Assembly (NCBI GenBank): GCA_963786955.1
Contig: CAWBAT010000004.1
Coordinates: forward strand, 672,001-736,000
Direction of reading: 5' to 3'
DNA from: an uncultured Acidimicrobiia bacterium
GTDB lineage: Bacteria > Acidobacteriota > Terriglobia > Versatilivoradales > Versatilivoraceae
Length of the DNA stretch: 64,000 nt
Shown: piece by piece, positions 39,598 through 56,574 of the stretch
How positions within the stretch are numbered: position 1 is the stretch's first letter
How the letters are laid out: each line of letters begins with the position of its first letter
The notes under the pieces: generated by a model
Told to the model about the DNA's origin: nothing
What the model saw: only the letters and a program-made list of their open reading frames with translations
The model's database searches: none
Program-made: the position numbers and the translations under genes

Positions 39598-40641
39598 TTA
39601 GATGGGGTGGAGTCCCGCAAATTCCAATCCGGTCTGCTCTTCCCAACGGTACATCACGTTCATGGCCTGTACCCCATTCCCGGCAGCCCCTTTCATCAAA
39701 TTATCCAGCGCCGAAAGAACGACGAGTCTGTTTTCGTGCGGGTCAAGTTCGAATCCGACATCACAATAATTTGAACCAATTAATAATTTGGGTTCAGGGT
39801 AACGGTAGATCCCGTTCTTTTCTTTGACAATTCGAATAAAGGGCTCATCCCGGTAAACGCTCCGATAGATCTTCCACAATTCTCTTTCCTCGGTTGATTG
39901 CCGGAGGGAGACATGGGCAGTGGAAAGAATACCTCGCACCGCATCGGTGGCCGTAGCTGAGAAATGAATGCGAGGAGTCTCTCCCTCAAAAGTCAGTTCC
40001 TGCCGAATTTCCGCCGTATGTCGATGGCCTGTGGGTTGGAACGAACGCATGGCTCCGCTCCGTTCGGGATGATGAGAAGATAGGCTGGATTTGTTTCCGG
40101 CGGCAGACGATCCGACTTTGCCTTCGATATAAACGTGGCTAGGGTCGGCTATTCCACTCTTAAAGAGCGGATATAACCCCAGGATAGCCGCAGTGGCCAA
40201 ACAGCCAGCACCGGTCACCAGAGTCGCATTCCGGATCGCTTCACGATGTAATTCCGGGATGCCATAAACGGCTTGTTGCAAGTAGCTGGGGTTACTATGT
40301 TCATGTCCATACCAGACAGAATAATCCGCTCCATTGCGCAAACGAAAATCGGCAGAAAGGTCGATGGCTCGCTCAGCCAAAACCAGGAATTCGGAAATAC
40401 GTGTCATCGCCATGCCGTGGGGAAGACACAGGAATATTAGATCCGATTTTTTGAGGTCCGCACTGGCAATGAACTTTAAATCGGTACGCTTTCGCAAATT
40501 GGGGTGAACGGAATAGACAAATTTCCCGGCATTCGATTCGGAGGTTACCTGGCTCACCTCTACTTGAGGGTGACTCAACAAAAGCCGTAACGTCTCTCCA
40601 CCCGTATACCCTGAAGCACCGACGATAGAAACCGAAAGCAT
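39598..40641 (-). CDS. lysY: [LysW]-aminoadipate-6-phosphate reductase (ArgC family)
   Basis: GASGYTG, AGC, GSSAAG, SSHHPER, HRHTAE, DNLMKGAAG. Confidence 0.88.
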   Translation of the reverse strand: MLSVSIVGASGYTGGETLRLLLSHPQVEVSQVTSESNAGKFVYSVHPNLRKRTDLKFIASADLKKSDLIFLCLPHGMAMTRISEFLVLAERAIDLSADFRLRNGADYSVWYGHEHSNPSYLQQAVYGIPELHREAIRNATLVTGAGCLATAAILGLYPLFKSGIADPSHVYIEGKVGSSAAGNKSSLSSHHPERSGAMRSFQPTGHRHTAEIRQELTFEGETPRIHFSATATDAVRGILSTAHVSLRQSTEERELWKIYRSVYRDEPFIRIVKEKNGIYRYPEPKLLIGSNYCDVGFELDPHENRLVVLSALDNLMKGAAGNGVQAMNVMYRWEEQTGLEFAGLHPI

Positions 40642-40804
40642 GTTCCTCCTAGCAAACTACGTTTGATCGCTTCAATCCCTGCTGCCTCGTGGGTCCGGAG
40701 TGGAAGGTATCCCATAGATCTCCCTCCTTCGGGCTCCTGCCAATCAAAGCTTAACGGCCGCGAGGACACATTGTCGAGCAGGAAGACTCGAATGGCTGAA
40801 TGGA

Positions 40805-41653
40805 CTAGTCACCCGCGCTGGCGACCTGGATAACATAGTCGATCACTTTCGCAGGGATGTTGACTCCGGTGGTGTCGATAGAGTTTCTGAACTCCATCGT
40901 GTAATTGACTTCATTGACAAGGAGTCCACGTTCGGTCTCAAAAAGGTCAATAGCCAGCACACCGCCACCAACGGCCCGGGCTGCCTCCAAGGAAAGTCGA
41001 TTGAGTTCTGGGGTAATCAGGCAGTTCTGGGCTTTTCCGCCTCGCGCCGTATTCGTAATCCAATGAGAGGAATACCGGTAGATCGCACAGATCGTTTCGT
41101 CACCGACAACGAAGCTCCGGATATCCCTTCCTTCCTTGGGGATATACTCTTGAATATAGAAGATCGAATGGTGATAAGAGCCCAATATCTCCTTATGCTC
41201 AAGAATCGCCTCTGCAGCCTCCCGATCGTTGACCTTCGACAACAACCGCCCCCATGAACCAACCGCCGGCTTGAGTACCACAGGATAGCCCAACTCTTCA
41301 ATCGCCTGAAGCGCCGACTCCGGAGTGAATGCCAGAATCGTCTGGGGAGAAGGGACTCCTCTTTTGATCAATGCATTCGTGGTCAAGAACTTATTTCCGC
41401 ATGTATCCGCTACCTCGAAGCGGTTCACTGTCTTTACGCCCCAGTCATTCAATACTTTGAGAGCATAAAGCGCACGCGAGTGGTTGACACAGCGTTCGAG
41501 CACCACATCAAAATCCATGTGCTTGGAATTCAAGCGAAAAATCAGCTCGCGATCATCTAATATCTGAAGGTCGATTTGTCGAGAACGAAACTCGTCGATA
41601 AGAAGTTTCTCTTCCTTGCGAACAATCGAACATAAGAGTGCAATTTTCATCAT
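40805..41653 (-). CDS. lysX: LysW ligase, ATP-grasp LysX/ArgX family
   Basis: [36 protein letters not shown]. Confidence 0.92.
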
Positions 41654-41779
41654 GATTGCCAAAAAATAAAAAAACCACAGCAGCTTCAAGACCCCCCTTT
41701 AGGGGTGTATCTTGATTTTGTCTGTGGTTACAAACACGAACACAGAGTCGAAAATCAAGGGAAGACGTCACTTTCCAGC

Positions 41780-41941
41780 CTATTCTCCCCAATCTTCCTC
41801 TTCTTGCGGCGCCACTTCTAACTCAACCGGATCTGTTCCGACCACTTCCAAATCCGCACCGCAATCGGGACAATTGACAATCTCACCTTTTTCGACATCT
41901 TCTAATTCGATATCTGCCTCGCACTCGGGACAGTATGCCAC
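41780..41941 (-). CDS. lysW: Amino-group carrier protein LysW
   Basis: Hand-translated GTG-start 53 aa [53 protein letters not shown]; GGAGG RBS; EDWGE C-terminus. Confidence 0.97.
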
Positions 41942-42094
41942 GACTCCTACCTCCTTAAACTTTCATAAAAATTCATCCGAGTGATCGACGAAGTTCCTGA
42001 ACTCAAGCGTCTCATCCAGGAATTATCCCCCTGCGCAGCCACTCGGATAGGAACCCTCAATCGATTCAAACAATAAAGGGCTCACCAATTCCTC

Positions 42095-42547
42095 TCAGGC
42101 GCTCGCATCCAGGCTGCTGAGCGCGTTGAGTCTGGACTGATAAGACCGGTTGAGGATCTGTTTCAAAAGAGGGTTCCCAATTTCAGTTTGGTCAATCCGC
42201 TCTTGAATCTCTTCCAGTTCTTCGACCGATTTCGCCTGCTGAATCACCTGCTTGAAATAGCTGAGGTCACCGATGGTCATGATCTCTTGGCTTTCTTCAT
42301 CCTCGATGATCGCCAAATGCCCACTCGGCAGGATCGATCGAATTTTCTGGTAGAGTTTCTCTCGGTATTCAAGGTTGCTCTCGCCAAATTCAGAATGGAA
42401 CCACTCTGCTGTCAGAGAACTAATCCCGCACTGAATATTCAGTTCGGCATAATTATTCGGTTCGGCTTCTGAAGAGTCCAATATCATTTCTTCGATATCA
42501 TCGATCACCGCTGCACTGGAAAAAACTGTTACGATTGTAACTTTCAT
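42095..42547 (-). CDS. Hypothetical protein
   Basis: 150 aa acidic ORF with AGGAG RBS. Confidence 0.65.
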   Translation of the reverse strand: MKVTIVTVFSSAAVIDDIEEMILDSSEAEPNNYAELNIQCGISSLTAEWFHSEFGESNLEYREKLYQKIRSILPSGHLAIIEDEESQEIMTIGDLSYFKQVIQQAKSVEELEEIQERIDQTEIGNPLLKQILNRSYQSRLNALSSLDASA

Positions 42548-42866
42548 AGACTCCTACTTAATTGAGTAAAACCGATTCCAAGATCATTCCACAAAAAGAA
42601 TGCTTTGAATTATAAGAAGATTCGTTTGGCCATGGCAAATATTTTTGCTGAATTCGTCAATGGGATGTTTTTTAGAAAACCCAGTTTTCATTGCATTCTG
42701 GTTCAAATCCAGAGTCGGAGTGCAATAGGAGCAAACAAAACTGCCGAGAACATGTCAGCTGCCCTTCCGTGGACGGATCCATGGTTTACCTTGAGCTTGG
42801 GCCGTGAATCCTCTAATATTCTGCTTCGATTCTATCTTAAATCCCGGATCGACATAAATTAAAGCG

Positions 42867-43202
42867 ATGAAAAAAACTAAGACCCCCAGTGGAGGGCACT
42901 CTCCCAGAAAATCAAAACGCGTGCACCTCAAGATAAGATTTAGACTGAGCGGGAGAGATCTAAATGGAAACCCGTTTGAGGACCTCGTCGAGACCAAAGA
43001 CATCGGAACCAGTGGAGGCAGTCTCTATACTAAACGCGATATTCGGGTTGGCTCAACCTTGAAGTTGTCCGGCCCCAAAGGATTCATCGCTTTGGTTCGA
43101 ATTATCTGGAACGAAGAAGAAGAAAACGGTTCGCGCCGCGTCTTGGGATTCCAATTGCTTGAGCCAAGGGAAGATTGGGTTTTGCAATTTCAGAGCCGCT
43201 AG
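42867..43202 (+). CDS. PilZ-like domain protein
   Basis: RKSKR (RxxxR) and DIGTSG (DxSxxG-like) motifs; GRDLNGNPFE. Confidence 0.75.
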   Translation: MKKTKTPSGGHSPRKSKRVHLKIRFRLSGRDLNGNPFEDLVETKDIGTSGGSLYTKRDIRVGSTLKLSGPKGFIALVRIIWNEEEENGSRRVLGFQLLEPREDWVLQFQSR

Positions 43203-43213
43203 GAGTTGTTCGA

Positions 43214-43894
43214 ATGAAAATTCAGTGGCTTGCGCACGCAACGTTTCTCATCGAAAGCAATGGGCTGCGCATTGTAACGGACCCCTACACCCCCCATGTC
43301 CTGGGCTTTCCAGAAGTTCAGGAACGGGCGGATCTCGTCATTCGGAGCTCGGCGGATGATGAAGGCCACTGCAATGCTGCCATGATCCAGGGAAAACCTG
43401 TTGTCGTTACCGCAACCGAGATTCCTCCCGGTGGAGTTGAGGTTCATGGAATCAAAGTGCTGGCGATCCCGGCACGAGAGAGTCTAATCTATAAGGAAAA
43501 TCCAGGCCTCAACGCCATGTACCGTTTTGCTCTGGAGAGCATACAGATCGCACATCTAGGAGATGTGGGAAACCCGCTCTCGGCCGATCAGGTTGCGGCA
43601 CTGCAGAATACCGATGTTCTCATGGTTCCCGCAGGGGGCCCCCCGACAATCAACCTGGAGGATTTGTGGGATGCCATTGCACTCATTCGGCCCCGAATTG
43701 TGATCCCCATGCATTACCATCTACCGATGACCAAGGTCAAGATGCTTTCCGTGACAGAGTTTACGGCGCACTTCCCCCCGGCTATCGTTGACTGGTGGCC
43801 AAATTCGGAAGTGGAACTCTCGCGGGATTCCCTTCCCAAAGAGTTACGGATTTGGGTGCTCAAACCCGGAGTCTTTTCCAAACCTAGAAAATAG
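43214..43894 (+). CDS. MBL-fold metallo-hydrolase (degenerate HxHxDH motif)
   Basis: WLAHATF, TDPY, HLGD, IPMHY; SADDEGH replaces the canonical HxHxDH. Confidence 0.8.
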   Translation: MKIQWLAHATFLIESNGLRIVTDPYTPHVLGFPEVQERADLVIRSSADDEGHCNAAMIQGKPVVVTATEIPPGGVEVHGIKVLAIPARESLIYKENPGLNAMYRFALESIQIAHLGDVGNPLSADQVAALQNTDVLMVPAGGPPTINLEDLWDAIALIRPRIVIPMHYHLPMTKVKMLSVTEFTAHFPPAIVDWWPNSEVELSRDSLPKELRIWVLKPGVFSKPRK

Positions 43895-43908
43895 CCTTCA
43901 AGAACCCG

Positions 43909-44199
43909 CTAATCGTTTTTTGATCCGGGCAGACCCAGAACGGTTGGGCCATGTTCTTTTTCCATCTCTTGCAACAAAGCCTCAAGAACTTCTCCCGCCG
44001 TTCCAGGGCGCTCCATCTTAGATGACCAGTGCCATTCATCAAGATACTCATCGCTTCCAATGAGGCCTTCCACCATAGCTACGCGGTCGATGGCCTGCTG
44101 GAAAGAATCCGGCAGAGGACGTGAAACTGGCTTGGATCCTTCGAAGACTTTGATCTGCGCCGGGATGTCACGCCAGTAAAGGATTTGATATTGAGCCAT
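43909..44199 (-). CDS. Small 'virulence factor' domain protein of the type seen in corrinoid methyltransferase clusters
   Basis: YWRDIPAQI...LP..FQQAIDRVAM..GL.GSDEYL..W signature. Confidence 0.75.
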   Translation of the reverse strand: MAQYQILYWRDIPAQIKVFEGSKPVSRPLPDSFQQAIDRVAMVEGLIGSDEYLDEWHWSSKMERPGTAGEVLEALLQEMEKEHGPTVLGLPGSKND

Positions 44200-44375
44200 C
44201 TTTTGGTCCTTTCATTGAAGGGTCTCTCCCAAGCACCCCATAGATCGAGAGCCCCGTTTGTCCCAACTCAATGCTTTTTGGCCACAGTGCGAGCTCGCTG
44301 TTGGCATGGCCGAGAGGCCCTTGTTTGAAGGCCTTTTAAGTATCCCTGGTGTCGGGCGAGCTTGCCGCGAAGGGT

Positions 44376-45431
44376 TTAACCGGCCCCAATTCCCGCCTCA
44401 AGCTCTTTACTCCGATAGGCACGAAGGAAGCTGCGACAGCCGATGTCACGGCCAAGCAACAGGTCAGCAGCCACCTGGTAGCTTCGGGATTGCCGGTCCA
44501 TTGCAAACACCTGATCCACTCGACCCGCTGCCGGATCAATGATGCCACTGTCGATCCCCGCTTCGGTGGCCAGAATGAGGAAGACGTTGTTTACCAGTCG
44601 GCGCATCGGAAGCCCGAAGGATACATTACTGAGCCCGCCGGTGATATGGATTTCCGGTCCGAACTTTTCGCGAAGTCTGCGTACTGCCTCGAAATAGTGG
44701 TTCCCAAAATCGCTGTCGACCGATATCGGAAACACCAGAGCATCAATGTAGAGATCCCGAAGAGGAATCCCTTTCTTCAGAGCCAGTTCGACAATTCGCG
44801 TTGCATTGTCAATTCGCTCGACCTCATCTTTCGGCATACCGCTTTCTCCTGCCGCCGACACAACCACTTGAGCTCCAAATTGAACTGCCAAATCCAACGC
44901 CATGATTCGTTCCAATGAAGCGGAATTCAGCAGGGGTTGGCCAGAATGTCCCTGGCAAGCTTCCAAGCCCGCACGAATCGTTTCCGTGTTGGAAGAATCC
45001 ACTGAAAGTGGAACCGGGCATACGGGACGCACAGCGTCGACCAGCCATAGCATGGCCGCTTTTTGGCTTTCGGGACGCAAAGAAACCTCATCGACGTTCA
45101 AATCAATGAAATCGGCTCCGGCATTCAGCTGGACCCGAACCTTCTGGTGCAAATACTCCAAACCCAGCGAGGCTCCAGGCTCTTGCCCCGACATCGCTGC
45201 CTGAATCGCAATTTTGATGTGCTTGATACGCCCTTCCTGGTATTCCTGTGTTTTCTTGTACTCCTCCGGAATGGGGAGATAACGCGGTTCCCCATTGGCC
45301 CCGGTGAACCGGACCGATTCCTGCCCTTCTTCAGTGGTGGTAACAAACTGCCCCCCTCGAAGGAGAATCCTTGTCGCGTGGATATTCTCACCAATAACGA
45401 TGAAATTTCTTCCCAGAGCTTTAATCTCCAT
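44376..45431 (-). CDS. Pterin-binding methyltetrahydrofolate:corrinoid methyltransferase (AcsE/MetH folate-domain-like)
   Basis: IGENIH, DLNVD, SVDSS, LNS, D.LV, GLSNVSFGLP. Confidence 0.88.
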   Translation of the reverse strand: MEIKALGRNFIVIGENIHATRILLRGGQFVTTTEEGQESVRFTGANGEPRYLPIPEEYKKTQEYQEGRIKHIKIAIQAAMSGQEPGASLGLEYLHQKVRVQLNAGADFIDLNVDEVSLRPESQKAAMLWLVDAVRPVCPVPLSVDSSNTETIRAGLEACQGHSGQPLLNSASLERIMALDLAVQFGAQVVVSAAGESGMPKDEVERIDNATRIVELALKKGIPLRDLYIDALVFPISVDSDFGNHYFEAVRRLREKFGPEIHITGGLSNVSFGLPMRRLVNNVFLILATEAGIDSGIIDPAAGRVDQVFAMDRQSRSYQVAADLLLGRDIGCRSFLRAYRSKELEAGIGAG

Positions 45432-45494
45432 TGTGTCTCTCCTGATGATCCGTTATTCCCCTCTTTAACGATTATTTGTTGCACCGAGACTTTA

Positions 45495-47072
45495 TCACGA
45501 TCTTCTTCGACTATGATCCCTCCCGAGAAATTTGTTCATCCAGCCACTGGTCCCTTTGAGAGCAGCATTTTTGATCACTACCGGTCTCTTGAGCATATCT
45601 TCCTCTCCCCCATAGGCCTTGAGTCGATCATAGGACAGCGACCAGATACACTCCTTCTCTCCAACTTCGCATTTGCCACGCCGTGTTCCACCACAAGGGC
45701 CATTCCTCTGGTTTTTGGCACATTGGGATTCCGGGCATAGGTAGGCAATATCCGGTAGTGAGCAATCGCCGCAATCCCGGCAATCGAAGGCAGCGACTTT
45801 CACTCCGTATTCAAGAGCATGCAAGGTTTTCCGCAAAACGCCGTCGGATTTTTCGACCGCTTCACTAATCCACTTTCCTGTCCGAAACCCCAAAGTGTCT
45901 TCAACGAAAACTTTATCATGCGTTAATCGGTTTATCTTGTAACTCAGCGGCACCTGGCGGCGCAAACTTGCCAGCGCTTCCGGAGACTTAGACCGCAGAT
46001 AGGCGCGATTGACCTCCGTTGAATTCAGTCCTGTTTCCAGATCAGGCTCAAAGTAGTAAAATTCGTCGGGCTGATGAAATTGAATCTCTCGAGCAAAATC
46101 TTTCCAATCGTTCTCCCCAAAGCTTTTGATCAATTCCAAGAGCCTTTCAAAATCTCCGTAATCCCAGTGCCCGCCCAAATAGGCACCACGAAACCCCAAC
46201 CCCTTGGCCACGGCGCATTGTTTGGCGGCAAATTCCAATAGGAAAGCTTTGCCTTTGTCCGGAGACTGGGCCTGCTTCTCAACCAGCGTTAACAATTCGT
46301 CCGTGACCACGCAGCCAGGAATTTTATCGGCGTGGAAAAAACGTGCGATGGGCAGACTTAAGACAAACACGTTGGCTAGCACCGGGGCCCTCAAGTGGTG
46401 GAGAGCCATGTACTTTAACAGTTCATCATGTTTTCGCGAGTCAAATCCAATCTGGGTGATAATGAATGAGGCGCCGCATTCTATTTTCTTGGCAAGCTTA
46501 AAATACTGGGGCATCACCTCACGTTCATAGCGTTTGTGATTATTGACCACCGCTCCCAAGAAGAAATGAGTCTGTTCCATCTTGCGTGTTTGACCATTGG
46601 GAAGGGTCAACTCCAAACCGGCATTCATTTCGGAGTACATCTTCAACAACGCTACCGAATCGATATCAAATACGGCACCGGCCTGACCTTGATAGCCATC
46701 GGCCGGAAAGTCACCGGAGAGAGCCAGGATGTTGTTGAACCCTTCACTAGCCAGTTGCCAGCCTCGACTTTGCAATGCATTCCGGTTCCAGTCTTTGCAC
46801 GACAAGTGAATAATGACTTCCTGTCCACGCGAGATAAGATCGGTTCCAAAAGCGTCCGCACCAATCATGGCGTTGCCACCCGGATTGTCGGTGATGCTTA
46901 GCGCATGCACTTGGGGATGCTCTGAAAGTTGCCTGGCCAAATGCAGGACTTTCCGTCCATTGCGACCTGTAATGAGCCCTCGCGAGGTCACTAGTTCTGC
47001 CACCGTGACAAATGTATCCGTTTCCTCGATAAGCTCACGCAAAGGCATTTTCGGCCATTCACCGGGTTGCAT
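45495..47072 (-). CDS. metF: Methylenetetrahydrofolate reductase MetF fused to a Cys-rich MetV/MTHFR_C domain
   Basis: ITDNP, HLSCKD, ALSGD, IITQ; C-terminal CRDCGDC...CPESQCAKNQRNGPCGG...CE...CIW. Confidence 0.85.
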   Translation of the reverse strand: MQPGEWPKMPLRELIEETDTFVTVAELVTSRGLITGRNGRKVLHLARQLSEHPQVHALSITDNPGGNAMIGADAFGTDLISRGQEVIIHLSCKDWNRNALQSRGWQLASEGFNNILALSGDFPADGYQGQAGAVFDIDSVALLKMYSEMNAGLELTLPNGQTRKMEQTHFFLGAVVNNHKRYEREVMPQYFKLAKKIECGASFIITQIGFDSRKHDELLKYMALHHLRAPVLANVFVLSLPIARFFHADKIPGCVVTDELLTLVEKQAQSPDKGKAFLLEFAAKQCAVAKGLGFRGAYLGGHWDYGDFERLLELIKSFGENDWKDFAREIQFHQPDEFYYFEPDLETGLNSTEVNRAYLRSKSPEALASLRRQVPLSYKINRLTHDKVFVEDTLGFRTGKWISEAVEKSDGVLRKTLHALEYGVKVAAFDCRDCGDCSLPDIAYLCPESQCAKNQRNGPCGGTRRGKCEVGEKECIWSLSYDRLKAYGGEEDMLKRPVVIKNAALKGTSGWMNKFLGRDHSRRRS

Positions 47073-47074
47073 CG

Positions 47075-48724
47075 CTATCCCTTCCTTCCGGGAACCGCCA
47101 AAGAGACAATGTCGTTCGGCATTGGCTTGAATTGGCAGCCCTCAACAAAAAGCTCGAAGAAATCAGGTATGGTTTCCAACTCAATGTGAGTAATATTCTT
47201 TAACAATTTCTGAATGAAATCCCTCCGACTCCTTGAAACTAAAAATTCCCATGCGCCCTGGACTGAGGCATTCCCGATCTTCACGACTCGTTCCTGCGGG
47301 ACAGGTGCCAGAAAACCAATCTCCATGGCATTGGCCACATCCACGTAATTGGCGAATCCCCCCGCCAGGTAGAGTTTCCGAATATCGGCCGGGCCCACGC
47401 CAAATTCCCGCATCAGGATGTATTGCCCGCAATAGTTGGCAGCTTTGGCCTGGGCCAGATAACTGGCATCCTCCCGAGAGAAGGTGATGCCGTATTCTGG
47501 CACGATGTCCAGGACATACTTCTTGTCTTTAAAAACCCCTTTGGGTGTCATGAGTTCATGGCATCGCAATTCTGCCAGCAGGTCTATGAGACCAGAGCCA
47601 CAAATTCCCTGCGGGGCAACATCGCCAATCGTCCGGTAGTCAAACTCCCCTGCCTTCCAGGAAAAACTCTCGATGGCGCCATCACAGCCCGGCATCCCAA
47701 ACTTGACCGCACCTCCTTCAAAGGCGGGCCCGGCCGGACAGGAAGCAATCAACATCCGGCCCGCATGCCCGATGACGACCTCAGTGTTGGTCCCGACATC
47801 CACGACCATGACCACGTCCTGTTGGGAGTCCATGTCCATCGCCAGTAAATCCGCCACCGTATCGGCGCCAACATGACTCGCGATCAACGGCATGCCGTAA
47901 ACCCTGGCTTTGGGATGAACCTGGATGCCAAGCTTACTCGCCTTTTCAATTAAGGCCGTATCCTGACGTTTTCCTGCAAGCATTTCTAATTCGATGACCG
48001 ATTTGTACGGCTTCTGCCCGATGCTCTGCACATCGATGTCGAAAAACAAGTCTCTCATCGTGGAATTTCCCGCCACGACAATTTCGTAGATCTCTTCACG
48101 ATTCACGCCGGCGATTCGGCAAATTTCTCGAACCTCATGATTCAGGGCGTGAATGATCGACTTGTGTAATTCCCCATGAAACCGCCCCCCGTCATAAGAA
48201 ATCCGGTGCATCACATCGCTTCCCCCAAACCGCTGCGGGTTATCAAAAGAGCTCAAGTAAAGGGAGGAACCCGTTTCCAGATCGACCAGGTCACACACCA
48301 CCGTCGTAGTGCCCAGATCCATCGCGATTCCGTAAAGATGGCCACGATACCGGTCAATCGGTTCCTCCCCGTAATACACTTCATTCCCCCGGTGTGTCAC
48401 CTGGGGATCCATTTGGAGGGATTTCTCCTGACGGGAAGTGAGGATTTTGGAGCGCCGGCGCCATGGCACAAAGCGGATGTCAAGGGTCGGATTTTCGATT
48501 TTCGCCTGGCAGGCAAGCCGGCATGGATTTCGCAGGAAAGATTCCGCTTGAGTAGTCGAATTCAATGCGTCCAGACCTTCGACAACCTCAACAATGCACT
48601 CATGGCAGGTCCCTTTGCGCCCGCAGGTGCTCGGTAATGGGACGGCAAGAACATCCGCGCATTCAAACAGAGACTCCCCGTAATTCCCCAAACACAATCT
48701 TCCTTCACAGGATATGGTCGCCAT
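47075..48724 (-). CDS. ATP-dependent corrinoid reductive activator (RACo/RamA-like, 2Fe-2S + ASKHA, DUF4445)
   Basis: CGRKGTCHEC...RLAC, DLGTTT, DVGTNTE, GPAFEG, GICGSG, AGGF. Confidence 0.9.
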   Translation of the reverse strand: MATISCEGRLCLGNYGESLFECADVLAVPLPSTCGRKGTCHECIVEVVEGLDALNSTTQAESFLRNPCRLACQAKIENPTLDIRFVPWRRRSKILTSRQEKSLQMDPQVTHRGNEVYYGEEPIDRYRGHLYGIAMDLGTTTVVCDLVDLETGSSLYLSSFDNPQRFGGSDVMHRISYDGGRFHGELHKSIIHALNHEVREICRIAGVNREEIYEIVVAGNSTMRDLFFDIDVQSIGQKPYKSVIELEMLAGKRQDTALIEKASKLGIQVHPKARVYGMPLIASHVGADTVADLLAMDMDSQQDVVMVVDVGTNTEVVIGHAGRMLIASCPAGPAFEGGAVKFGMPGCDGAIESFSWKAGEFDYRTIGDVAPQGICGSGLIDLLAELRCHELMTPKGVFKDKKYVLDIVPEYGITFSREDASYLAQAKAANYCGQYILMREFGVGPADIRKLYLAGGFANYVDVANAMEIGFLAPVPQERVVKIGNASVQGAWEFLVSRSRRDFIQKLLKNITHIELETIPDFFELFVEGCQFKPMPNDIVSLAVPGRKG

Positions 48725-48790
48725 CTTAGAAGCATCCGGGGCAGGAGACCCATTCTCTAACCGCGTGTCTCTCTTTCCCCTGGTTCCTCG

Positions 48791-49030
48791 CTATGATTCC
48801 CAGGCACCGCGATAGTCTAACTGATCGTCCCCGGCACAAATTGGCAGGCTGCCTGCGTCCGGAGATTTCCGCTTGTTCCGGCATCCGAAGTTTGCAGTGC
48901 ACTGATTGAGGCGGTTCTTATAGGGGCAACGGCATTGGGAGAGTTCGTCGGCATGAACAACCATACTGGCAAATAATTCTGTGAGCTGATTTAAACTTCT
49001 TTGATAGCGCTCCGGATCTATTTTTTGCAT
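48791..49030 (-). CDS. Small Cys-rich hypothetical protein
   Basis: 79 aa, CRCPY...C...FGC...C; 3 nt downstream of the corrinoid gene. Confidence 0.75.
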   Translation of the reverse strand: MQKIDPERYQRSLNQLTELFASMVVHADELSQCRCPYKNRLNQCTANFGCRNKRKSPDAGSLPICAGDDQLDYRGAWES

Positions 49031-49033
49031 ATC

Positions 49034-49798
49034 TTATGAATTCCTAACACCGGCCTTCACGCCAAGCAATTGCTTCGCTAGTGCCACACATGCCATTGCA
49101 TCTTTCCCGTAACCGTCGGCCCCCATATCATCGGCAAAATCCTGAGTGACCGGAGCCCCTCCGACCATGATTTTGACCTCATCCCGAAGTCCTGCATCAA
49201 TGAAGGCCTCGATCGTCTTGCCCATGTTCGGCATCGTTGTCGTCAACAAAGCTGACATCCCGAGGAGAGGGGCATGGTGCTCTTCAAATGCCTCGATGAA
49301 ACGGTCAGGCGACGTGTCCACGCCTAGGTCATGAACAATAAACCCTGAACCTCGTAACATCATGATGCACAGATTCTTCCCAATGTCATGGAGGTCACCC
49401 TTGACTGTTCCCATGATCACGGTTCCCATCGGTTTAATGCCCGAGGCCGAAAGAATCGGCTCAATGTGACACATACCAGCTTTCATCGCACGAGCGCAAG
49501 CCAAAACCTCCGGAACATAAATGAAGTTCTGCCGGAATTTGATCCCTACGATCGCCATCCCGGCAATCAATCCGTTGTCCATGACATCCAGAGCCTCAAA
49601 TCCTTTATCCAGGGCTTGGCGCGTCAACTGGTCAACGCCCTTATTTTCCCCTTCGATCAGGGCTGCCGCAATGGCCTGGAGTTCCGGATGCGCTTTGGCA
49701 AACAATTGGATGATGCGCGCCCGTTCCTCCGGTCGTTCTATATATTCTTCTATTTCTGTTCGAATGAACTCATTTTGAATATCGTTGACTTCGACCAT
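49034..49798 (-). CDS. Corrinoid (cobalamin)-binding methyl-carrier protein
   Basis: YVPEVL cap domain, GDLHDIGKN (DxHxxG), SALLTT, VGGAPV. Confidence 0.93.
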   Translation of the reverse strand: MVEVNDIQNEFIRTEIEEYIERPEERARIIQLFAKAHPELQAIAAALIEGENKGVDQLTRQALDKGFEALDVMDNGLIAGMAIVGIKFRQNFIYVPEVLACARAMKAGMCHIEPILSASGIKPMGTVIMGTVKGDLHDIGKNLCIMMLRGSGFIVHDLGVDTSPDRFIEAFEEHHAPLLGMSALLTTTMPNMGKTIEAFIDAGLRDEVKIMVGGAPVTQDFADDMGADGYGKDAMACVALAKQLLGVKAGVRNS

Positions 49799-49915
49799 GA
49801 AGACCTCATCAAAAATGGAATATGGGCATGACTTCGTGCCGGTGTCGGCGCCCCTGGCCCCCGGCTGGTAGAGGACCGGCTAGAATGCGTCCCTGTAATA
49901 CCGGCGATTCCAGTT

Positions 49916-50989
49916 TCAGGCGGTGGTTCCTGGCGCCGCCTTGGTGCGGTGCTCTCGATGCCAGTCACGCACAGCCTTGGGAATCTCCTTCAGGTTCTCA
50001 ATGGCTGTTTGAAGGGGTATAGCGCATTCGGGACCGACTAGCTGTACACCGGCCTCCAGATTCTTATAGACTTCCCGACGGACTTCTTCAGGACCTTTCG
50101 AGAAAAGCGTCTCCGGATTATTGATATTCCCGACCAGGGAGATGCGGTTTCGTACAACGTTCATTGACTCCACCGGCTCGTTTTTTGAGTCGTAATGGAA
50201 GGCGGCCATTCCTGTCTGCGCGATATATTCCATGCGGTCTACGGTCTTGCCGCAGATATGCAAAATAATGGGAGCAGGCAGTCGCTCGGCAAATTCCACA
50301 TGGAGATCACGCAGGTAACGGGCGTAATATTCACCGCTGACCAAATCACCCGTGGCATGATCCGGCAAGGTCAAAGCGTCCGCTCCCGCTTCGATCTGGG
50401 CTAAACCAAACAAGACCGTGATTTCTTTGAGCTTGTCGAGGACAGCTTTGGTCTTTCCCGGGTCATCTAATGACAACAGCAAAAAGGGTTCCACTCCAAA
50501 GCAGTGATAAGCCAGGGACCAGGGCCCCATCGTTTTCCCAATAATGGCTACGGCATCGCCCAATTCTTTTCTGAGCAGCTTGATTGCCTGAAGCACACAC
50601 TGCATGTCGGGATGTTTCAGAAGATTCGAAGGAATTTGAATATCGTCAACATCCTGCCAAATCGGCTCACGCATTTTAACGGTCGGCCAGTTGTCTTTTT
50701 GTTCCCACTGAATCTTGCATCCTAATGCTGAAGATTCCTGGATAATGCTGAAGACCGGCATCACACTATCGAAACCTAACTCGGTATGCCCGGTCGCGGC
50801 CAGACGGGCCATAGTTTCCGGAACGCGATTGGCATCCGGAAAGGGAGCATCCACCAGGTCCATCAGCTCTACGGTGGCTACTGATGTTGGATTGCAAACT
50901 GGCGTTTGATCCACGGGTTCACGGCGCAAAGCCGCGAGAACGCGTTGCCGCCCGGTCATGGGAGGAATGGTCTGACCTACACTGTGCAT
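49916..50989 (-). CDS. MtaA/CmuA-family methyltransferase (URO-D superfamily)
   Basis: RVLAAL..EPVD..PV.NPTSVATVELMD, Zn ligands HICG and GPEC, GNIN. Confidence 0.9.
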   Translation of the reverse strand: MHSVGQTIPPMTGRQRVLAALRREPVDQTPVCNPTSVATVELMDLVDAPFPDANRVPETMARLAATGHTELGFDSVMPVFSIIQESSALGCKIQWEQKDNWPTVKMREPIWQDVDDIQIPSNLLKHPDMQCVLQAIKLLRKELGDAVAIIGKTMGPWSLAYHCFGVEPFLLLSLDDPGKTKAVLDKLKEITVLFGLAQIEAGADALTLPDHATGDLVSGEYYARYLRDLHVEFAERLPAPIILHICGKTVDRMEYIAQTGMAAFHYDSKNEPVESMNVVRNRISLVGNINNPETLFSKGPEEVRREVYKNLEAGVQLVGPECAIPLQTAIENLKEIPKAVRDWHREHRTKAAPGTTA

Positions 50990-51033
50990 CTCATTCTCCT
51001 TTACACAATTGTCAACGGAGGATACGTGCTGAG

Positions 51034-51690
51034 CTAGAGATTCATCGATTGATTCTGGGCGCTAGGTGGCGCAAGAATACCCTTCGACGCCGCCAACTCC
51101 TGCTCCCGGAGCACAGCCCGAACATTCAAGGCCCTCCCGAGCAGTAGACCAATGAGTGGATCGTGTCGTTGGCCGCAGGGAAAGGAAAGCTGATTCGAAC
51201 CCTGTTCTTCTATCCGCAATTCAGCAAGTTTAGTCAACCCTTGGGCGACAGCGGAAATCCGGAGGGGCTTCTCTTCATTGTCCGGGCCATCCGCCGTCAA
51301 CTCATAGCTGAACCCCGGACCCATGGTCACCCGGATCGTCCGATTTGATTTCTTGTCGAAGATTAACAACTCTTTGGGAACCAACAAACTTCCATTCGGT
51401 ATCTTGCAAACTTCCAGAAAGACCCGTCTACAAGCCTTCAGATGGTCCCCATGGCAAGGAAAACGAACCCGCCCCGAGCCATCCTGGAGAAACTCCATCC
51501 CTCCCAAAGTGACCATTCCCTCGCCGATAAACCGGATTCGGTCCATCGCTTCCGGGCGTTGACTATAAGTATGGACCAGAAATTCCGGCCCCCGACCATG
51601 GTCTTGTAGATAAAGCGCAATCGAGATGTTCAGGCAATGGGGGTCCATCGACACCAGCTCAATGCGCTTGCCAATATCGATCGTAAGCAT
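51034..51690 (-). CDS. Hypothetical protein with two FPCxxxH repeats; first gene of the methyltransferase operon
   Basis: GAGGAG RBS before ATG 51690; RFPCHGDH and SFPCGQRH. Confidence 0.75.
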   Translation of the reverse strand: MLTIDIGKRIELVSMDPHCLNISIALYLQDHGRGPEFLVHTYSQRPEAMDRIRFIGEGMVTLGGMEFLQDGSGRVRFPCHGDHLKACRRVFLEVCKIPNGSLLVPKELLIFDKKSNRTIRVTMGPGFSYELTADGPDNEEKPLRISAVAQGLTKLAELRIEEQGSNQLSFPCGQRHDPLIGLLLGRALNVRAVLREQELAASKGILAPPSAQNQSMNL

Positions 51691-51780
51691 CTTGATCCAA
51701 TCTCCTCGAAATGGGTTCCAGCCAACTTGCCCCAAATTTTCTTGACCGGCATCCGGTCATTCCGTTAACCTTGGAGTCAG

Positions 51781-51807
51781 TTCTCAGGTTGTCTGACAAC
51801 TTGAGAA
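51781..51807. promoter_or_regulatory. FadR/GntR-type operator palindrome TTCTCAGGTTGTC-T-GACAACTTGAGAA
   Basis: 27-bp inverted repeat with one mismatch, core TTGTCTGACAA, overlapping the -10 element and predicted start site of the operon promoter; FadR gene is divergent. Confidence 0.7.
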
Positions 51808-51832
51808 TACGATCAATTTTTTCCCTTGTAAA
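51804..51832 (-). promoter_or_regulatory. Sigma70 promoter for the methyltransferase operon (TTTACA-N17-TATTCT)
   Basis: -35 at 51832-51827, -10 at 51809-51804, exactly 17-bp spacer. Confidence 0.6.
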
Positions 51833-51851
51833 GCAAAATTCAGTAGTTTTT

Positions 51852-52019
51852 GTAATGCGTTAGTTACGGGGGGAAATCTGTAAGGGCAAGGCCTTCGGTG
51901 ACGATTTGAGATTGTCGCTTCTGTAGCGGCTGAGTGGCTAGGGACGGACCGCCGGGCCGTCCGCGGCGCGCTCGGCGAGCGCGCCCTACCAGAAATCCCC
52001 CCGATAACTAACGCATTAC
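51852..52019. mobile_element. 168-bp MITE-like element with 15-bp perfect TIRs and 8-bp target duplication
   Basis: TIR GTAATGCGTTAGTTA / TAACTAACGCATTAC; TAGTTTTT at 51844-51851 and 52020-52027; internal REP-like hairpin doublet at 51937-51990. Confidence 0.8.
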
Positions 52020-52240
52020 TAGTTTTTTTGCTTAAGAAGTCTGCCTTGGGGTCGGCCCAATGGGCAGAGAAATTGAGCACCCCTTCAGAGCCTAAGGGCA
52101 GAAACAATGTGTGATGGTATGGACGAAACTTGCAGGCCGCAACTTCGAAACCCGAGAGGCATCCAACGGGCTTCCCACAGCCGAGAATGTTGATGACGCG
52201 CGTCAGCTCAAAAAAATTGCCCAGCCATTCAATGCCGGCT

Positions 52241-52972
52241 ATGAAACCGATCATCCGGACATCTTTGAGTGATGAGATTGTCGAACGGATTATCGTTCTG
52301 ATCTCGGAGAGAGTGCTTAAACCCGGAGAACGTCTTCCTTCTGAGAAGGACTTGGCCAGCCAGTTTGGAGTGGGACGCACCACCGTTCGGGAGGCCCTGC
52401 GTTCTCTCGCAGTATTGGGAATTGTGGACGGGCGAGTCGGTGAAGGGACATTTGTTTCCAGCACAAACCGGCGTTACCTCGAAAAAGCGTTACAGTGGGG
52501 CTTGTTGATTGACCGGAAAGATGTCCAGGATTTGATTGAAACGCGCCTTCTCCTCGAATCACAGACCGCCTATTGGGCGGCTCACCGGGCAAATCAAGGC
52601 AATCTTAAGGAAATCGCAGAAGCCATTCAAGGAATGGTGCAATCGATTCATGACCCTGAAGGCTATTTGCGGTCTGATTTGAAGTTCCACATTTCCATTG
52701 CGCAATCCAGTCAGAACTCTATCCTTTATCACCTCGTCAGCATGACGCGCGGATATCTTCAAGCCTGGATCCAAAGAAGTCTCTCTCGCCCGACTCCTCG
52801 CAAAGCTCAGCAGCGGGCAGAGATTTCAATCCAAGAACATCGGAATATCTTTCAAGCCATTCGGTCCGGAGATGCTGAGGGAGCCCGTCAGGCCATGAGT
52901 GCGCATATCCTTTCGAGCAGCCAAGACCTACAGTCCTGGCTGGCCCGGAAAAAAATCCCGAAGGGAGGCTAG
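52241..52972 (+). CDS. FadR/GntR-family transcriptional regulator (start uncertain, 52187-52241)
   Basis: LKPGERLPSEKDLA..FGVGRTTVREAL; FCD domain DLKFH...EH. Confidence 0.92.
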   Translation: MKPIIRTSLSDEIVERIIVLISERVLKPGERLPSEKDLASQFGVGRTTVREALRSLAVLGIVDGRVGEGTFVSSTNRRYLEKALQWGLLIDRKDVQDLIETRLLLESQTAYWAAHRANQGNLKEIAEAIQGMVQSIHDPEGYLRSDLKFHISIAQSSQNSILYHLVSMTRGYLQAWIQRSLSRPTPRKAQQRAEISIQEHRNIFQAIRSGDAEGARQAMSAHILSSSQDLQSWLARKKIPKGG

Positions 52973-52978
52973 AGACTC

Positions 52979-53833
52979 TTGAGACAGACGGCAAAGCTGC
53001 TGGTTTCCTGCAACGATCGGAAAGGACTGGTCGCTCACATTTCGGATTTCATCTATCGAAATGGCGGTAACATTCTGGACTTCGACCATCACACAGACCT
53101 CGAAGCCGGCGTATTCCTGGCCCGGATAGAATGGGAGCTCAAAGACTTCCAGATTCCAAGTACTCAAATCGCCGCAGCTTTTTCGAGCCTGGCCTCGGAT
53201 TTTCAAATTCGTTACCAGGTCTACCTTGGCGACCAGGTCCCTAAGATTGCCATCTTTGTCTCGAAACTGCCTCACTGCCTGGTTGACCTGCTTTTGCGAA
53301 ATCAGGCTGGAGAGTTCAAAGCGGACATCACATTGATTCTCAGTAATCATACTGATGTCGAGGAAATTGCGAGGTCATTCGGGATTCCGTTCATGCATTT
53401 CCCCATCACGCCACAGAACAAAGTGCAACAGGAAGAAGCCCAGATTCGAGAGATTCTCCACCGAGAAGTCGAGCTGATTGTTCTGGCGCGATATATGCAA
53501 ATTCTCAGTGAGCATTTTGTGTCAACTTTTCCGAACCGCATCATCAACATTCACCATTCTTTTTTGCCTGCCTTCATTGGAGCGGCCCCTTATCATCAAG
53601 CCTTTGCGCGAGGAGTCAAATTAATCGGAGCAACAGGCCATTACGTGACGACGGCGCTCGACAATGGCCCCATCATTGAACAGGAAACAGCCCGGGTGAG
53701 TCATCGGGACTCAGTTGAAGATTTGATCCGGAAAGGACGCGACCTGGAAAAATCAGTGCTGGCACGCGCCGTGCGTCTCCATTTATTGCGTAAAGTTCTG
53801 ACTTATGGGAATAGGACTGTTGTCTTCGACTGA
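52979..53833 (+). CDS. purU: Formyltetrahydrofolate deformylase
   Basis: ACT domain, LARYMQILS, NIHHSFLPAF.GA.PY, GVKLIGAT. Confidence 0.95.
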   Translation: MRQTAKLLVSCNDRKGLVAHISDFIYRNGGNILDFDHHTDLEAGVFLARIEWELKDFQIPSTQIAAAFSSLASDFQIRYQVYLGDQVPKIAIFVSKLPHCLVDLLLRNQAGEFKADITLILSNHTDVEEIARSFGIPFMHFPITPQNKVQQEEAQIREILHREVELIVLARYMQILSEHFVSTFPNRIINIHHSFLPAFIGAAPYHQAFARGVKLIGATGHYVTTALDNGPIIEQETARVSHRDSVEDLIRKGRDLEKSVLARAVRLHLLRKVLTYGNRTVVFD

Positions 53834-53965
53834 TGGCATATCGCCTCTTCTGCCCTAAAGGTTAGCAAAGGACAGTTCTCCTTCATCCTCTGTAATCAGT
53901 CTCTCGTTATTGTGATAGCCTCCCGTAATCTTGCAAATTCAGCCAAATTATTTCGGAGGTTCTCG

Positions 53966-54762
53966 ATGAATAAACACCGATGGAGTTCTCTGCTTATAGG
54001 GTTTCTCTTTTCGTTATGGCAACACCTTTAATGTCCCAGGACCAACCCGCCGTCTATACAAGGGTCGCTTTCTGGAATATTGACCGGCAGTACTGGGAGG
54101 GCTATCAAAAAAACTTTGAAGAATATGACCAGCCCGTTTTTGAAAAACTCTTGGCTGATGGGGTGATTACTGAGTGGGGGGCGGACGCACAGGGTGTTCA
54201 CACAGCGGAAGGCGCCACGCATGCAAACTGGTTTTCGGCCAAGAGCATCGCCAACCTCGAGCGCGCTCTGGAGGAAGTCCAGAAAGGGATGTCGAAGATG
54301 TCTCCAGAAGTTCGGAAAAAATCTGAAACCGATTTTGCCGGTCCAAAGCACTATGACTTATTGTTCCATTCTGATTTCTATCGCTCTCGGCCAGCCAAGC
54401 TAGACAGTGGCTATGACATGACCAATATCATAAAGGTCAAACGTGGAAAAGCTGCGGAGTACAAGAAACTGTGGGAAAAATACACAAAGCCAATACTGGA
54501 TCAGCTCTTTAACGATGGCACCATCAAGACCTATGCGCTGTTTTCCGACTACATTCATACCGCCACCCCGGGAAATCAATACAGCTGGTATGTCGTGGCC
54601 GATGCGGCTGCTTTGGACAAAGTCGATGCGGCCTTTGACGCTGCCCGGAACAAGCGTACTCCCGAGGAGCGCGATGCGGTCATGCGGTCACTCGAAGAGA
54701 TTTCCGTCGAAGGATCTCATCGTGACGACATGTCCCGGATTTTACACTACAACTCGAAATAG
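53966..54762 (+). CDS. Secreted hypothetical protein with two related halves; apparent frameshift at 54008-54011
   Basis: GGAGG RBS + ATG 53966; adding one T gives the signal peptide MNKHRWSSLLIGFLFFVMATPLMS joined to ORF 53980-54762; repeats PVFEKLLADGVI / PILDQLFNDGTI. Confidence 0.7.
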
Positions 54763-55081
54763 AGTCTTCCCATCCGCCTGGAAACTGCAAGCGACCCATG
54801 GTTCACAAATCTGTTTTCCCTGGATGCCGGGGCTAAAGACCCCGGCCATTCAATCCAGTCACAATCCATTCCCTCTTCCCATTCCCTCTTCATCTTCCCG
54901 TCCTATCCGGATTGATGTCTTACCGGATGCTCTCTTCGTTTCAATCCTTTTGCAAGACGCCTTCGAAAAGGCGTCTTGCAAAATCGATCTCTCTATAAAT
55001 TTGAGCAGACCAACAAACTGCCTTTACCGCCTGACGAATATGCTTCACAACTACTGACAAAGAAAGGGAACGAGGCCTCTT

Positions 55082-56361
55082 CTACTTGTAACCTGCCGCC
55101 CCTAGCCCGGCTGCACGGCCTGTCACCCAGGCCCAGAGGAAATTGTATCCACCAATCGGGCCGAAGGCATCGAGCAGTTCTCCGCAGAGAAAAAGGCCCG
55201 GATACCTCCGGCTCTCCATAGTCCGGGGATTGATCTCCGACAAACTTACACCGCCTCCAGTGACCTCCGCTTTTTGGTAACCTTCATCCCCGCTCCAAGG
55301 GAGATTGCAGCGCACGAGGGCGTCCACCACACGCCGACGTTCTTCGCGTCTCAGTCTGGCAAGCCGGCAGGCTGATTCGACATTTGCTATTTTTAATAAC
55401 CCCTCCGCGAGCCGCTCCGGGAGCCGTGACGCACAACAGCACCAACCGTGCGTGCACCATCATTCCGAAGCAACAAATCCCATGCCCCGGAGTCGAGACT
55501 GGTCCAGCTTACCGACAGGCGCGCCGGAGGTCTGCCCTCAGTTAAAGAACGCACTGCCACATGGGAGACGTCCAGTACAGCCGGCCCACTGTAACCCCGG
55601 TGCGTAAAAAGAAAGCCACCGGTTGCAGTAGCCTTTCGCAACCCATCACTGGCCGTAATCCGCACCTGTAGTGACACACCTGCCAGGCCGCAGAACGGAG
55701 ACGACTTCGCCGTCAATGGTGTCAAAGCAGGATAAGTCGGATGAATAGTAAGTCCGAGCTTCTCTAGAATCGATAGTCCTCTTCCGTCACTGCCTGTCTT
55801 CGGGACGGAAAGCCCCCCAGTGGCTAAAACTACTGCATCCGCATCGAGCGGTGCTCCCCCTTCCCGTTCCACTCGCCAGGAACCCTGTTGGGGAGTGAGG
55901 CCTGTCATCCGACTATGAGGCATAAACTTCACACCCTTCCTGGCTCCCAGCATGAGAAGACCATCACGAACGTCTCGCGCGCATTGTGAGGCAGGAAATA
56001 ATTTTCCAGACTCCTCTTCTTCTTCCAGAGGAAGTCCAAGCTCTCGTTCAAAAAATATGATTTGCTCATGGAGCGCCCACGAGCGAATCATTTTCCGCAG
56101 CGTGTTGGGCGAAGAATCGGTAACGAACCGTGATTCATCGAGCCGTGCCGGAAGGATATTGCAGCGCCCCCCTCCGCTGATCAGTACCTTGCGCCCACCC
56201 TCATGTGTGCTCTCAAGCAACAGCGTTTCTGCCCCTGTTGCTGCAGCAAAAATCGCGGCCATTGAACCAGCCGCCCCTGCCCCAATCACCAATACCCGCC
56301 GCCGTTTGCCTTTAGAAGAGCTGGAATAGAATTGGGGTGTCACTGCGATGCTATTCTCCAT
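55082..56361 (-). CDS. HI0933/YhiN(BaiN)-family flavoprotein, split by an apparent frameshift near 55424-55428
   Basis: GAGAAG, GRKVLISGGGRCN, ATGGLS, LFTHRGYSGP; C-part AEVTGGGV...GELLD..GPIGGYNF in ORF 55082-55330. Confidence 0.88.
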
Positions 56362-56574
56362 ATTCTGAAGAGCGCGGGGCGGGATGTGCCAGTCAACCCT
56401 CCCGAACATAGCGGTTCCACCCATTCCCCCAGACGGTGTGAAAGAATTGATGAGCGGGCTTATTGAGGGTTTGTAGTGACGACTTTAGTCGTTTCTTTTC
56501 AACCTGACTCTGGCACGACTGAAGTCGTTACTATGATCGTTTCACACCTTCCCATCCAGCAGGGGATGAATGCG

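Follow-up and report, generated by a model that had tools for sequence, protein, structure and literature searches.

In the cmu pathway of Methylorubrum extorquens CM4, a methyl group passes from a corrinoid to tetrahydrofolate (THF) by way of a pterin methyltransferase and is then carried by MetF, FolD and PurU to formate. In Ruegeria pomeroyi, MtgC and MtgD are required both for methionine synthesis, together with MtgE, and for glycine betaine demethylation, together with MtgB; a second MetF (MetF2) is induced, and RamA and DUF1638 accompany this hub (PMC12478193). The enzyme MtpA is specific for the thioether/thiol pair methylmercaptopropionate (MMPA)/mercaptopropionate, and the demethylation of a thioether onto Co(I) is described as thermodynamically unfavourable (10.1101/548461). 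Type 1 mlp clusters were proposed by Kountz and Balskus to serve methyl-sulfur or methyl-selenium metabolism, and a His-Cys-Cys site marks the S/Se methyltransferases of the superfamily, whereas O-demethylases replace one or both Cys ligands (PMC10418091). The system described in this study is a corrinoid-dependent operon in a 64,000-nucleotide stretch of DNA (the window; contig CAWBAT010000004.1, positions 672,001 to 736,000) from an uncultured member of the Acidobacteriota, whose genome (G000) comprises 5.65 Mb in 9 contigs and is 93.3% complete.

The locus is a genuine and probably regulated operon for vitamin B12-based methyl shuttling. Eight open reading frames (ORFs) on the minus strand, all in one direction and with intergenic gaps of 2-176 bp, were assigned to domains with Pfam and NCBIfam (Table 1). 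A preliminary description of the window had listed these eight genes and their domains along with a divergent GntR/FCD regulator and purU, and all of them were found where it had placed them. Domain content supports its view of a corrinoid-dependent methyl-transfer module, in which the methyltransferase and the corrinoid protein are indeed unfused, being two genes with a 117-bp gap. The core of the operon is of a known kind; the uncharacterised port, formed by the MtaA-like enzyme and a 218-aa partner protein, is highly conserved and occurs widely in bacteria of soils, sediments and sponges. With a probability of about 0.6, the operon is a hub of the MtgC/MtgD/MetF2/RamA type, whose port exchanges methyl groups with a compound that is probably sulfur-linked. 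Gene content, conservation pattern and the predicted pairing of the two port proteins are the results on which this proposal stands, and are presented first.

A search of a collection of species-representative genomes found 527 candidate stretches coding for relatives of the MtaA-like enzyme, and the locus counts given here refer to the best 80, whose contents were determined by tblastn with the window proteins. These 80 relatives are 79-90% identical and belong to Poribacteria, Latescibacterota, Acidobacteriota and Gemmatimonadota. The partner gene lies directly upstream of the MtaA-like gene in all 80 loci; the "FPCxxxH" protein of the preliminary description is therefore present, and its rank is revised from one gene among eight to the invariable partner of the MtaA-like enzyme. 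The corrinoid protein was found in 42 loci, the RACo activase and the Cys-rich protein in 41 each, the pterin methyltransferase and MetF-MetV in 33 each and the PF13769 protein in 29, and genes counted as absent may lie off the contig, since several of the 80 loci end at contig ends (e.g. L023, L057, L058). A stand-alone homocysteine S-methyltransferase (PF02574, about 330 aa) is encoded within 10 kb in 19 of the 80 loci.

In 36-37 of the 80 loci, mostly from Poribacteria (L045-L097), the pair is located behind PQQ_2 and beta-lactamase-like genes, with no carrier nearby. These preceding genes lie on the same strand and encode a PQQ_2 beta-propeller of about 505 aa and a class-A beta-lactamase-like protein of about 300 aa (e.g. 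L045:6804-9303). An orthologous carrier, 76-77% identical, is located elsewhere in all five complete Poribacteria chromosomes queried, and in the two of them that were read its operon consists of the carrier, then a fusion of the Cys module with RACo, then the homocysteine methyltransferase. From these locus contents, the conserved core therefore comprises the partner, the MtaA-like enzyme, the carrier and RACo with or without its Cys module, with a homocysteine methyltransferase as a usual companion. The folate arm, consisting of the pterin enzyme, MetF-MetV and the PF13769 protein, is frequent yet optional.

The partner protein has no match in Pfam, NCBIfam or PDB sequences. Its ORF as listed (51034-51735) begins at a TTG at 51735, and the ATG at 51690, which gives 218 aa, is most likely the true start, as M1 is invariant in 36 homologues. 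Residues H18, H40, C79, H83, C95, C172 and H176 are near-invariant, and the C-terminal tail is conserved. A search with the partner profile against 1.84 billion representatives revealed a small family with 276 matches at E <= 0.001, and the 150 matches listed are, judged by length, mostly stand-alone proteins (about 200-250 aa) or shorter pieces; because this library carries no names, the search ties the partner to no known family. The AF2 model of the partner is confident (pLDDT 87.4, pTM 0.84) and comprises two alpha/beta half-domains. With this model, Foldseek found nothing in the PDB at E <= 0.001 (best E 0.15), and the best result of a wide VIA-align search, a Z of 6.8 over 88 residues of a urea carboxylase domain, is within the common range of that tool; such an absence of model-based matches does not establish the fold as new. 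The possibility that the partner is a divergent DUF1638 protein was rejected (hhalign probability 0.3%).

The predicted complex of the MtaA-like enzyme and the partner scored 0.84, compared to 0.00 for the best of three controls. Among solved complexes 116 of 157 scored this high, as did 2 of 215 mismatched pairs, counts that apply only roughly to a prediction from custom alignments. At least 64% of contacts recur between runs, and the partner pLDDT is 82 or higher. On the enzyme side the predicted interface includes the zinc ligands C246 and C322, with residue 323, and the invariant segment 36-49; the partner contributes its N-terminus, residues 41-45 and its conserved C-terminal tail (201-212). 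The score, which expresses model confidence and is not a measurement, supports the binding of the two proteins to each other, with the partner predicted to sit over the active-site face of the enzyme.

The MtaA-like enzyme passes the cut-off of the mtaA_cmuA subfamily (TIGR01463) and remains below the equivalog cut-offs of MtaA (NF040654, 235.2 of 400 bits) and MtbA (NF041608, 193.5 of 600 bits). Its by far best match is MtaA of M. mazei (4ay7, E 4e-54), whose zinc motifs align with the motifs LHICG and GPECA (H-x-C ... C) of the enzyme. The ligands H244, C246 and C322 are invariant in the 35 sequences of the alignment, from which L075 was left out for a stop codon in its reference. Such a His-Cys-Cys set is the mark of S/Se methyltransferases (PMC10418091). 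The earlier suggestion that the MtaA-like enzyme is the most likely substrate-specific step is supported. Two MtaA-like matches in genus g8 (G009:C49:1597-2640 and G015:C23:135823-136866) carry one TAG each, which is either a stop at the alignment end or an internal codon.

The carrier protein is 72-89% identical to its relatives. The N-terminus of the activase holds a CX5CX2C...C 2Fe-2S motif, and the 79-aa Cys-rich protein corresponds to an N-terminal extension of RACo in relatives, the two being fused in L118 (638 aa). The pterin methyltransferase matches positions 375-611 of MetH and scores 203 bits with NF005719, below the cut-off of 259. The preliminary description had not recognised a characterised pathway in this gene set. 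That assessment does not hold for the core, since the carrier, RACo, the pterin methyltransferase and the MetF paralogue match the MtgC/MtgD/MetF2/RamA hub and the split MetH (PMC12478193), an architecture into which the PF13769 protein also fits; it holds for the set as a whole, as literature searches, with subscription journals outside their coverage, found no account of the pair or of the operon.

The divergent promoter region contains the palindrome TTCTCAGGTTGTC-T-GACAACTTGAGAA. A search of both strands of the window for its core, TGTC-N-GACA, allowing up to two mismatches, returned this one site (0.32 expected). Of 35 related loci with the regulator, 10 retain the core in the gap that separates it from the first operon gene, and all of these are Acidobacteriota. 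A -35/-10-like pair (51832-51804) abuts the palindrome. This pair is a consensus match only, and the promoter scan was no better than chance (5 promoter-like sites vs 5.8 expected from shuffles); of the earlier statement that an operator palindrome lies on the promoter, the palindrome is thus retained, and the position of the promoter is that of a consensus match. An Rfam search of 40000-58000 gave one chance miRNA match and no riboswitch in the operon. The regulator is present in 35 of the 80 related loci, and PurU is adjacent in three, a linkage peculiar to this genus and its closest relatives; in the related locus L020, FTHFS adjoins the regulator. The conservation of purU and the regulator with the cassette, on which the preliminary description had made its interpretation depend, is therefore largely absent.

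A repeat of 168 bp, resembling a miniature inverted-repeat transposable element (MITE), has inserted into the divergent promoter region on the regulator side of the palindrome. Nearly full-length copies of it number at least 29 in the genome (92-99% identity), and one RNA-library contig joins 51846 to 52024, skipping the element; it is not part of the methyl-transfer system. Metatranscriptome contigs from four runs in three studies match parts of most genes of the stretch at a likeness of at least 90%. They place close relatives in RNA libraries and are weak evidence of expression, indicating presence and not levels, with DNA carry-over possible.

Based on these observations, we infer the direction of flow, chemistry, substrate and regulation as follows. 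The RACo activase, with its extra four-Cys module, would keep the stand-alone B12 carrier in the Co(I) state, and the pterin-binding methyltransferase would exchange methyl groups between the carrier and THF. MetF-MetV would connect CH3-THF with CH2-THF, and FolD, together with the adjacent PurU, would carry the carbon to formate in this genus; the FolD gene, correctly reported as missing from the window, is located at G000:C5:1357264. The folate arm may run toward formate, or backward to supply CH3-THF. A homocysteine methyltransferase, present here as a YitJ-type fusion and in many relatives as a stand-alone gene within the cluster, would form the methionine exit; as the same carrier and pterin enzyme can serve it, the hub would double as a split B12-dependent methionine synthase. 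The heterodimer of partner and MtaA-like enzyme, with its His-Cys-Cys site, would be the substrate-specific port, which transfers methyl groups reversibly to and from the carrier. Its substrate would be a soft-atom compound, in the likeliest case a methyl thioether/thiol pair; if this were carboxylated, as MMPA/mercaptopropionate is, it would suit an FCD-type regulator. The GntR protein may act as a repressor that controls the operon through the palindrome and is relieved by the compound of the port. A more specific and tentative proposal is that the pair is a new two-subunit thioether:corrinoid methyltransferase, with which aerobes take methyl groups from MMPA, dimethyl sulfide (DMS), methanethiol or similar compounds and pass them onward to homocysteine or THF. 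Loading from the thioether alone would be uphill, though transmethylation from thioether to homocysteine would be feasible, being close to thermoneutral.

The methionine exit can be compared to the rest of the genome. Full-length MetH was not found in the G000 assembly, where only its pieces are encoded, namely two corrinoid proteins, the pterin enzyme of the cluster and a homocysteine domain. The Pterin_bind genes of G000 are FolP and that of the cluster. PF02574 occurs once, outside the cluster, in a YitJ-type fusion of homocysteine methyltransferase (HcyMT) and methylenetetrahydrofolate reductase (MTHFR) on contig 5 that scores above the equivalog cut-off, and no MttB-family (PF06253) gene was found in this genome. 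The missing full MetH, the cluster's single Pterin_bind gene besides FolP and the 19 loci with a stand-alone homocysteine methyltransferase speak for a methionine-synthase role of the hub alongside its other function. Within the class, the MtaA-like gene is present in 27 of 61 genomes (24 of 30 in family f1, 2 of 2 in family f11, 0 in other families). MetH exceeds the cut-off in 5 of the 27 cluster-bearing genomes, with one further contig-end fragment, versus 25 of the 34 genomes without the gene. A PF02574 gene is present in 21 of the 22 cluster bearers lacking MetH, the exception being a genome that is 77% complete. Both the cluster and MetH are found in G001 and G002, which belong to the same genus as G000, and in G004, G006 and G010; the five Poribacteria chromosomes probably encode a full MetH as well, assigned by frame length (1229-1254 aa). 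The metH neighbourhood of G002 has almost no counterpart in G000 at the DNA or protein level.

The only cobalamin riboswitch of G000 precedes a btuB-btuFCD uptake operon and was thereby ruled out as a pointer to a B12-independent methionine synthase. Behind it (L121, G000:C5:396757-399519), the TonB-dependent receptor reads as split into an ORF of 486 aa containing the Plug domain and one of 312 aa containing the barrel, and genes resembling btuF, btuC and btuD come next. The genome also contains two short MetE-like (Meth_synt_2) genes of 402 and 360 aa, which score below every NCBIfam methionine-synthase cut-off and are possible core methionine synthases. They lie at G000:C3:128535-130564 and G000:C4:833967-836359, where one follows a PF12974 phosphonate-type binding protein and the other adjoins an AIR-synthase-related protein.

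Several points weigh against a reversible, sulfur-linked port feeding such a hub. In the related loci, nothing that could identify the compound, be it a substrate, a transporter or a catabolic gene, is consistently linked, and the PurU linkage is confined to 3 of 80. The partner is predicted where the carrier corrinoid should dock, so it may be a cap or regulator instead of a catalytic subunit. As demethylation of a thioether onto Co(I) is unfavourable for the related MtpA, the port may run mainly outward, methylating a thiol. A methionine role is not general, because both same-genus relatives, and probably the five Poribacteria chromosomes too, have a full MetH beside the system. The absence of MetH from G000 is unproven, since with no synteny and an assembly that is 93% complete, loss and gap are inseparable, and the contrast in MetH between genomes with and without the cluster is suggestive rather than statistical and is overstated, as these genomes are kin.

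Outward flow is the main rival explanation, and the other three are lower. According to this alternative, which is rather unlikely, methyl groups of CH3-THF would pass via MetF-MetV, the pterin enzyme and the carrier to the pair, which would add them to the sulfur or selenium of a small thiol, sulfide or selenide for detoxification, volatilisation or the synthesis of an S-methyl metabolite, parallel to methionine synthesis. It accords with the His-Cys-Cys site and with the common operon of MetF-MetV and the pterin methyltransferase, as well as with reports that MtaA and MtpA favour the direction of thiol methylation (10.1101/548461) and that in vitro methylation of selenide from methylcobalamin is catalysed by a related Mlp (PMC10418091). 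However, the two Poribacteria operons pair the carrier with RACo and HcyMT and contain no pterin methyltransferase, and therefore an outward port would lack a methyl source there unless the MtaA-like enzyme supplies it. PurU here and FTHFS in L020, both beside the regulator, point to C1 oxidation, and selD gives no selenium signal, as it is found in 55 of 61 relatives with or without the cluster. Most selD genes of the class (G003-G060) carry one in-frame TGA, the selenocysteine form; those of G000, G002, G004, G006 and G007 do not.

It is improbable that the operon is a purely biosynthetic split methionine synthase, in which the pair would be an auxiliary or alternative homocysteine methyltransferase, or a maturation or protection factor. 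The preliminary description had named a split methionine synthase as the alternative that would overturn its demethylation proposal. The split-synthase part agrees with the absence of a full MetH from the G000 assembly, the cluster holding the only non-FolP pterin domain, the 22 of 27 cluster-bearing relatives without MetH over the cut-off, and HcyMT in or beside the cluster in 19 of the 80 loci. The purely biosynthetic part does not hold, as both same-genus relatives, along with G004, G006 and G010, possess the cluster and a full MetH. In addition, 21 of the 22 cluster bearers without MetH encode a dedicated PF02574 enzyme alongside the MtaA-like one, which would make a second homocysteine enzyme superfluous; a GntR/FCD regulator of catabolic type and PurU are attached here; and the published three-part split MetH functions without such a pair (PMC12478193).

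Use of methyl halides in the manner of cmu, with the unfused enzyme dehalogenating CH3Cl or CH3Br onto the carrier for transfer to THF, MetF, FolD, PurU and formate, is very unlikely. The enzyme does belong to the mtaA_cmuA subfamily, the operon has a pterin methyltransferase and MetF with PurU adjacent, and roseobacter MtgC was placed near the CmuA corrinoid domain (PMC12478193). Against this, methyltransferase and corrinoid domain are encoded separately, purU adjoins the cluster in 3 of 80 loci and no folD was seen beside it in any, and the frequent linkage to a homocysteine methyltransferase is foreign to cmu. To our knowledge, the cmu pathway also has no obligatory 218-aa partner. Identity of the locus with a cmu cluster was likewise rejected, since the enzyme is unfused, purU accompanies 3 of 80 and MetF-MetV 33 of 80 loci, and folD is on another contig.

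An O-demethylase or methanol methyltransferase acting on methoxy-aromatics, methylated sugars or methanol is scarcely credible: URO-D-family (uroporphyrinogen decarboxylase) enzymes include O-demethylases and a GH28 gene lies 6 kb away, but H244/C246/C322 are invariant, unlike in the Cys-replacing O-methyltransferases (PMC10418091 for both points on the family), MtaA is the best match by far, and a separate, more O-demethylase-like module is present on contig 9. This second corrinoid module (L011, G000:C9:134773-139692) encodes a distant URO-D protein of 419 aa, a corrinoid protein of 209 aa, DUF1638 and a RACo of 514 aa; its neighbours are a GH38 mannosidase gene and one of the enolase superfamily, and a dedicated THF methyltransferase is missing. 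Methylated sugars are a possible substrate for O-demethylation by this module, which might then rely on the folate arm of the operon described here.

Table 1. Genes and other features of the operon and its divergent promoter region, in window positions
Feature	Position	Strand	Basis and remarks
218-aa partner protein ("unk218")	51034..51690	-	No Pfam or NCBIfam match; promoter-end gene
MtaA/CmuA-family zinc methyltransferase, 357 aa	49916..50989	-	TIGR01463 mtaA_cmuA, 252.3 bits (cut-off 235.4)
Stand-alone corrinoid protein (carrier), 254 aa	49034..49798	-	PF02607 cap and PF02310 B12-binding/Rossmann
Cys-rich protein, 79 aa	48791..49030	-	No family in Pfam or NCBIfam
RACo/RamA-type ATP-dependent reductive activase of corrinoid proteins	47075..48724	-	PF14574 and PF17651; RACo middle and ASKHA domains
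MetF-MetV fusion	45495..47072	-	PF02219 (MTHFR) and C-terminal PF12225 (DUF5981/MetV)
Pterin-binding methyl-THF:corrinoid methyltransferase (MeTr/MtgD-like)	44376..45431	-	PF00809 Pterin_bind, E 4.5e-22
PF13769 ("Virulence_fact") small protein	43909..44199	-	E 1.2e-18; last gene of the operon
GntR/FCD-family regulator, divergent	52241..52972	+	PF00392 and PF07729; ORF opens at 52130, likely start 52241
PurU, formyl-THF deformylase	52979..53833	+	TIGR00655, 384.7 bits (cut-off 286)
Palindrome with 13-nt arms, candidate GntR operator	51781..51807		Core retained in 10 of 35 loci
MITE-like repeat, 22-nt terminal inverted repeats	51852..52019		Repeat copies across the genome

Elsewhere in the window, at 37152-41689, genes for an amino-acid kinase, a semialdehyde dehydrogenase and a LysX-type ATP-grasp ligase lie in one direction. 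They form an amino-group-carrier-type lysine/arginine biosynthesis set and are unrelated to the corrinoid operon.

The MtaA-like enzyme and its partner are among the most conserved gene couples seen, yet one of the two has neither a family nor a clear fold match, and no published account of it was found. If methyl groups do pass through the pair between the hub and a compound of sulfur (or selenium or halide), a B12 route would link organosulfur or trace-gas turnover, methionine and one-carbon (C1) metabolism in aerobes. Such a route would account in part for the need of these uncultured groups for B12 and would extend the principle of an "intertwined" methionine synthase and demethylase beyond glycine betaine and the Alphaproteobacteria. 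Should the narrower thioether proposal be true, the consequences would include folate-independent methionine synthesis by transmethylation between thiols, or THF-linked oxidation to formate, and an unrecognised, widespread sink for volatile organosulfur compounds in soil, sediment, sponge and ocean bacteria. In that case a new protein family with a new fold would act at the active site of a corrinoid enzyme.

Comparison with the described systems places the operon as follows. It shares with cmu the route from corrinoid to THF to formate and the mtaA_cmuA subfamily; it differs in that CmuA is a methyltransferase-corrinoid fusion and that cmu is not known to have either the homocysteine methyltransferase link or the 218-aa partner. 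Type 1 mlp clusters, as characterised in PMC10418091, contain two or three Mlp paralogues (at least Mlp2 and Mlp3) and no THF methyltransferase, and are confined to obligate anaerobes, whereas this operon has one URO-D gene, a pterin methyltransferase, MetF-MetV and the 218-aa partner and is found in Acidobacteriota, Poribacteria, Latescibacterota and Gemmatimonadota; assignment to this type was rejected for its single URO-D gene and the presence of a THF methyltransferase. In common with the methanogen enzymes MtaA (4ay7), MtbA, MtsA and MtpA, the MtaA-like protein has a URO-D fold, an H-x-C...C zinc site and a separate corrinoid protein (10.1101/548461). Unlike them, it is bacterial and non-methanogenic, has no coenzyme M context and an obligatory 218-aa partner, scores below the MtaA and MtbA equivalog cut-offs, and retains 79-90% identity across four phyla.

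The closest described counterparts are the MtgBCDE hub of Ruegeria and the three-part split MetH of Phaeobacter inhibens (PMC12478193), with which the operon has in common a stand-alone corrinoid protein, a bidirectional pterin methyltransferase and a RamA/RACo activase. An extra MetF beside the pterin gene, aerobic hosts and the proposed dual logic of demethylation and methionine synthesis are further shared features. As to a separate homocysteine methyltransferase, there is none in this cluster, the genome encodes the domain in the YitJ-type fusion, and a stand-alone gene lies nearby in 19 of 80 related loci. The operon differs from these counterparts in its input, which is an MtaA/CmuA-family zinc enzyme with a partner and not the MttB-family MtgB. 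It also differs in the fusion of MetF to MetV, the extra four-Cys module of RACo, a cluster without DUF1638, and a homocysteine domain that is fused to a second MTHFR elsewhere in the genome.

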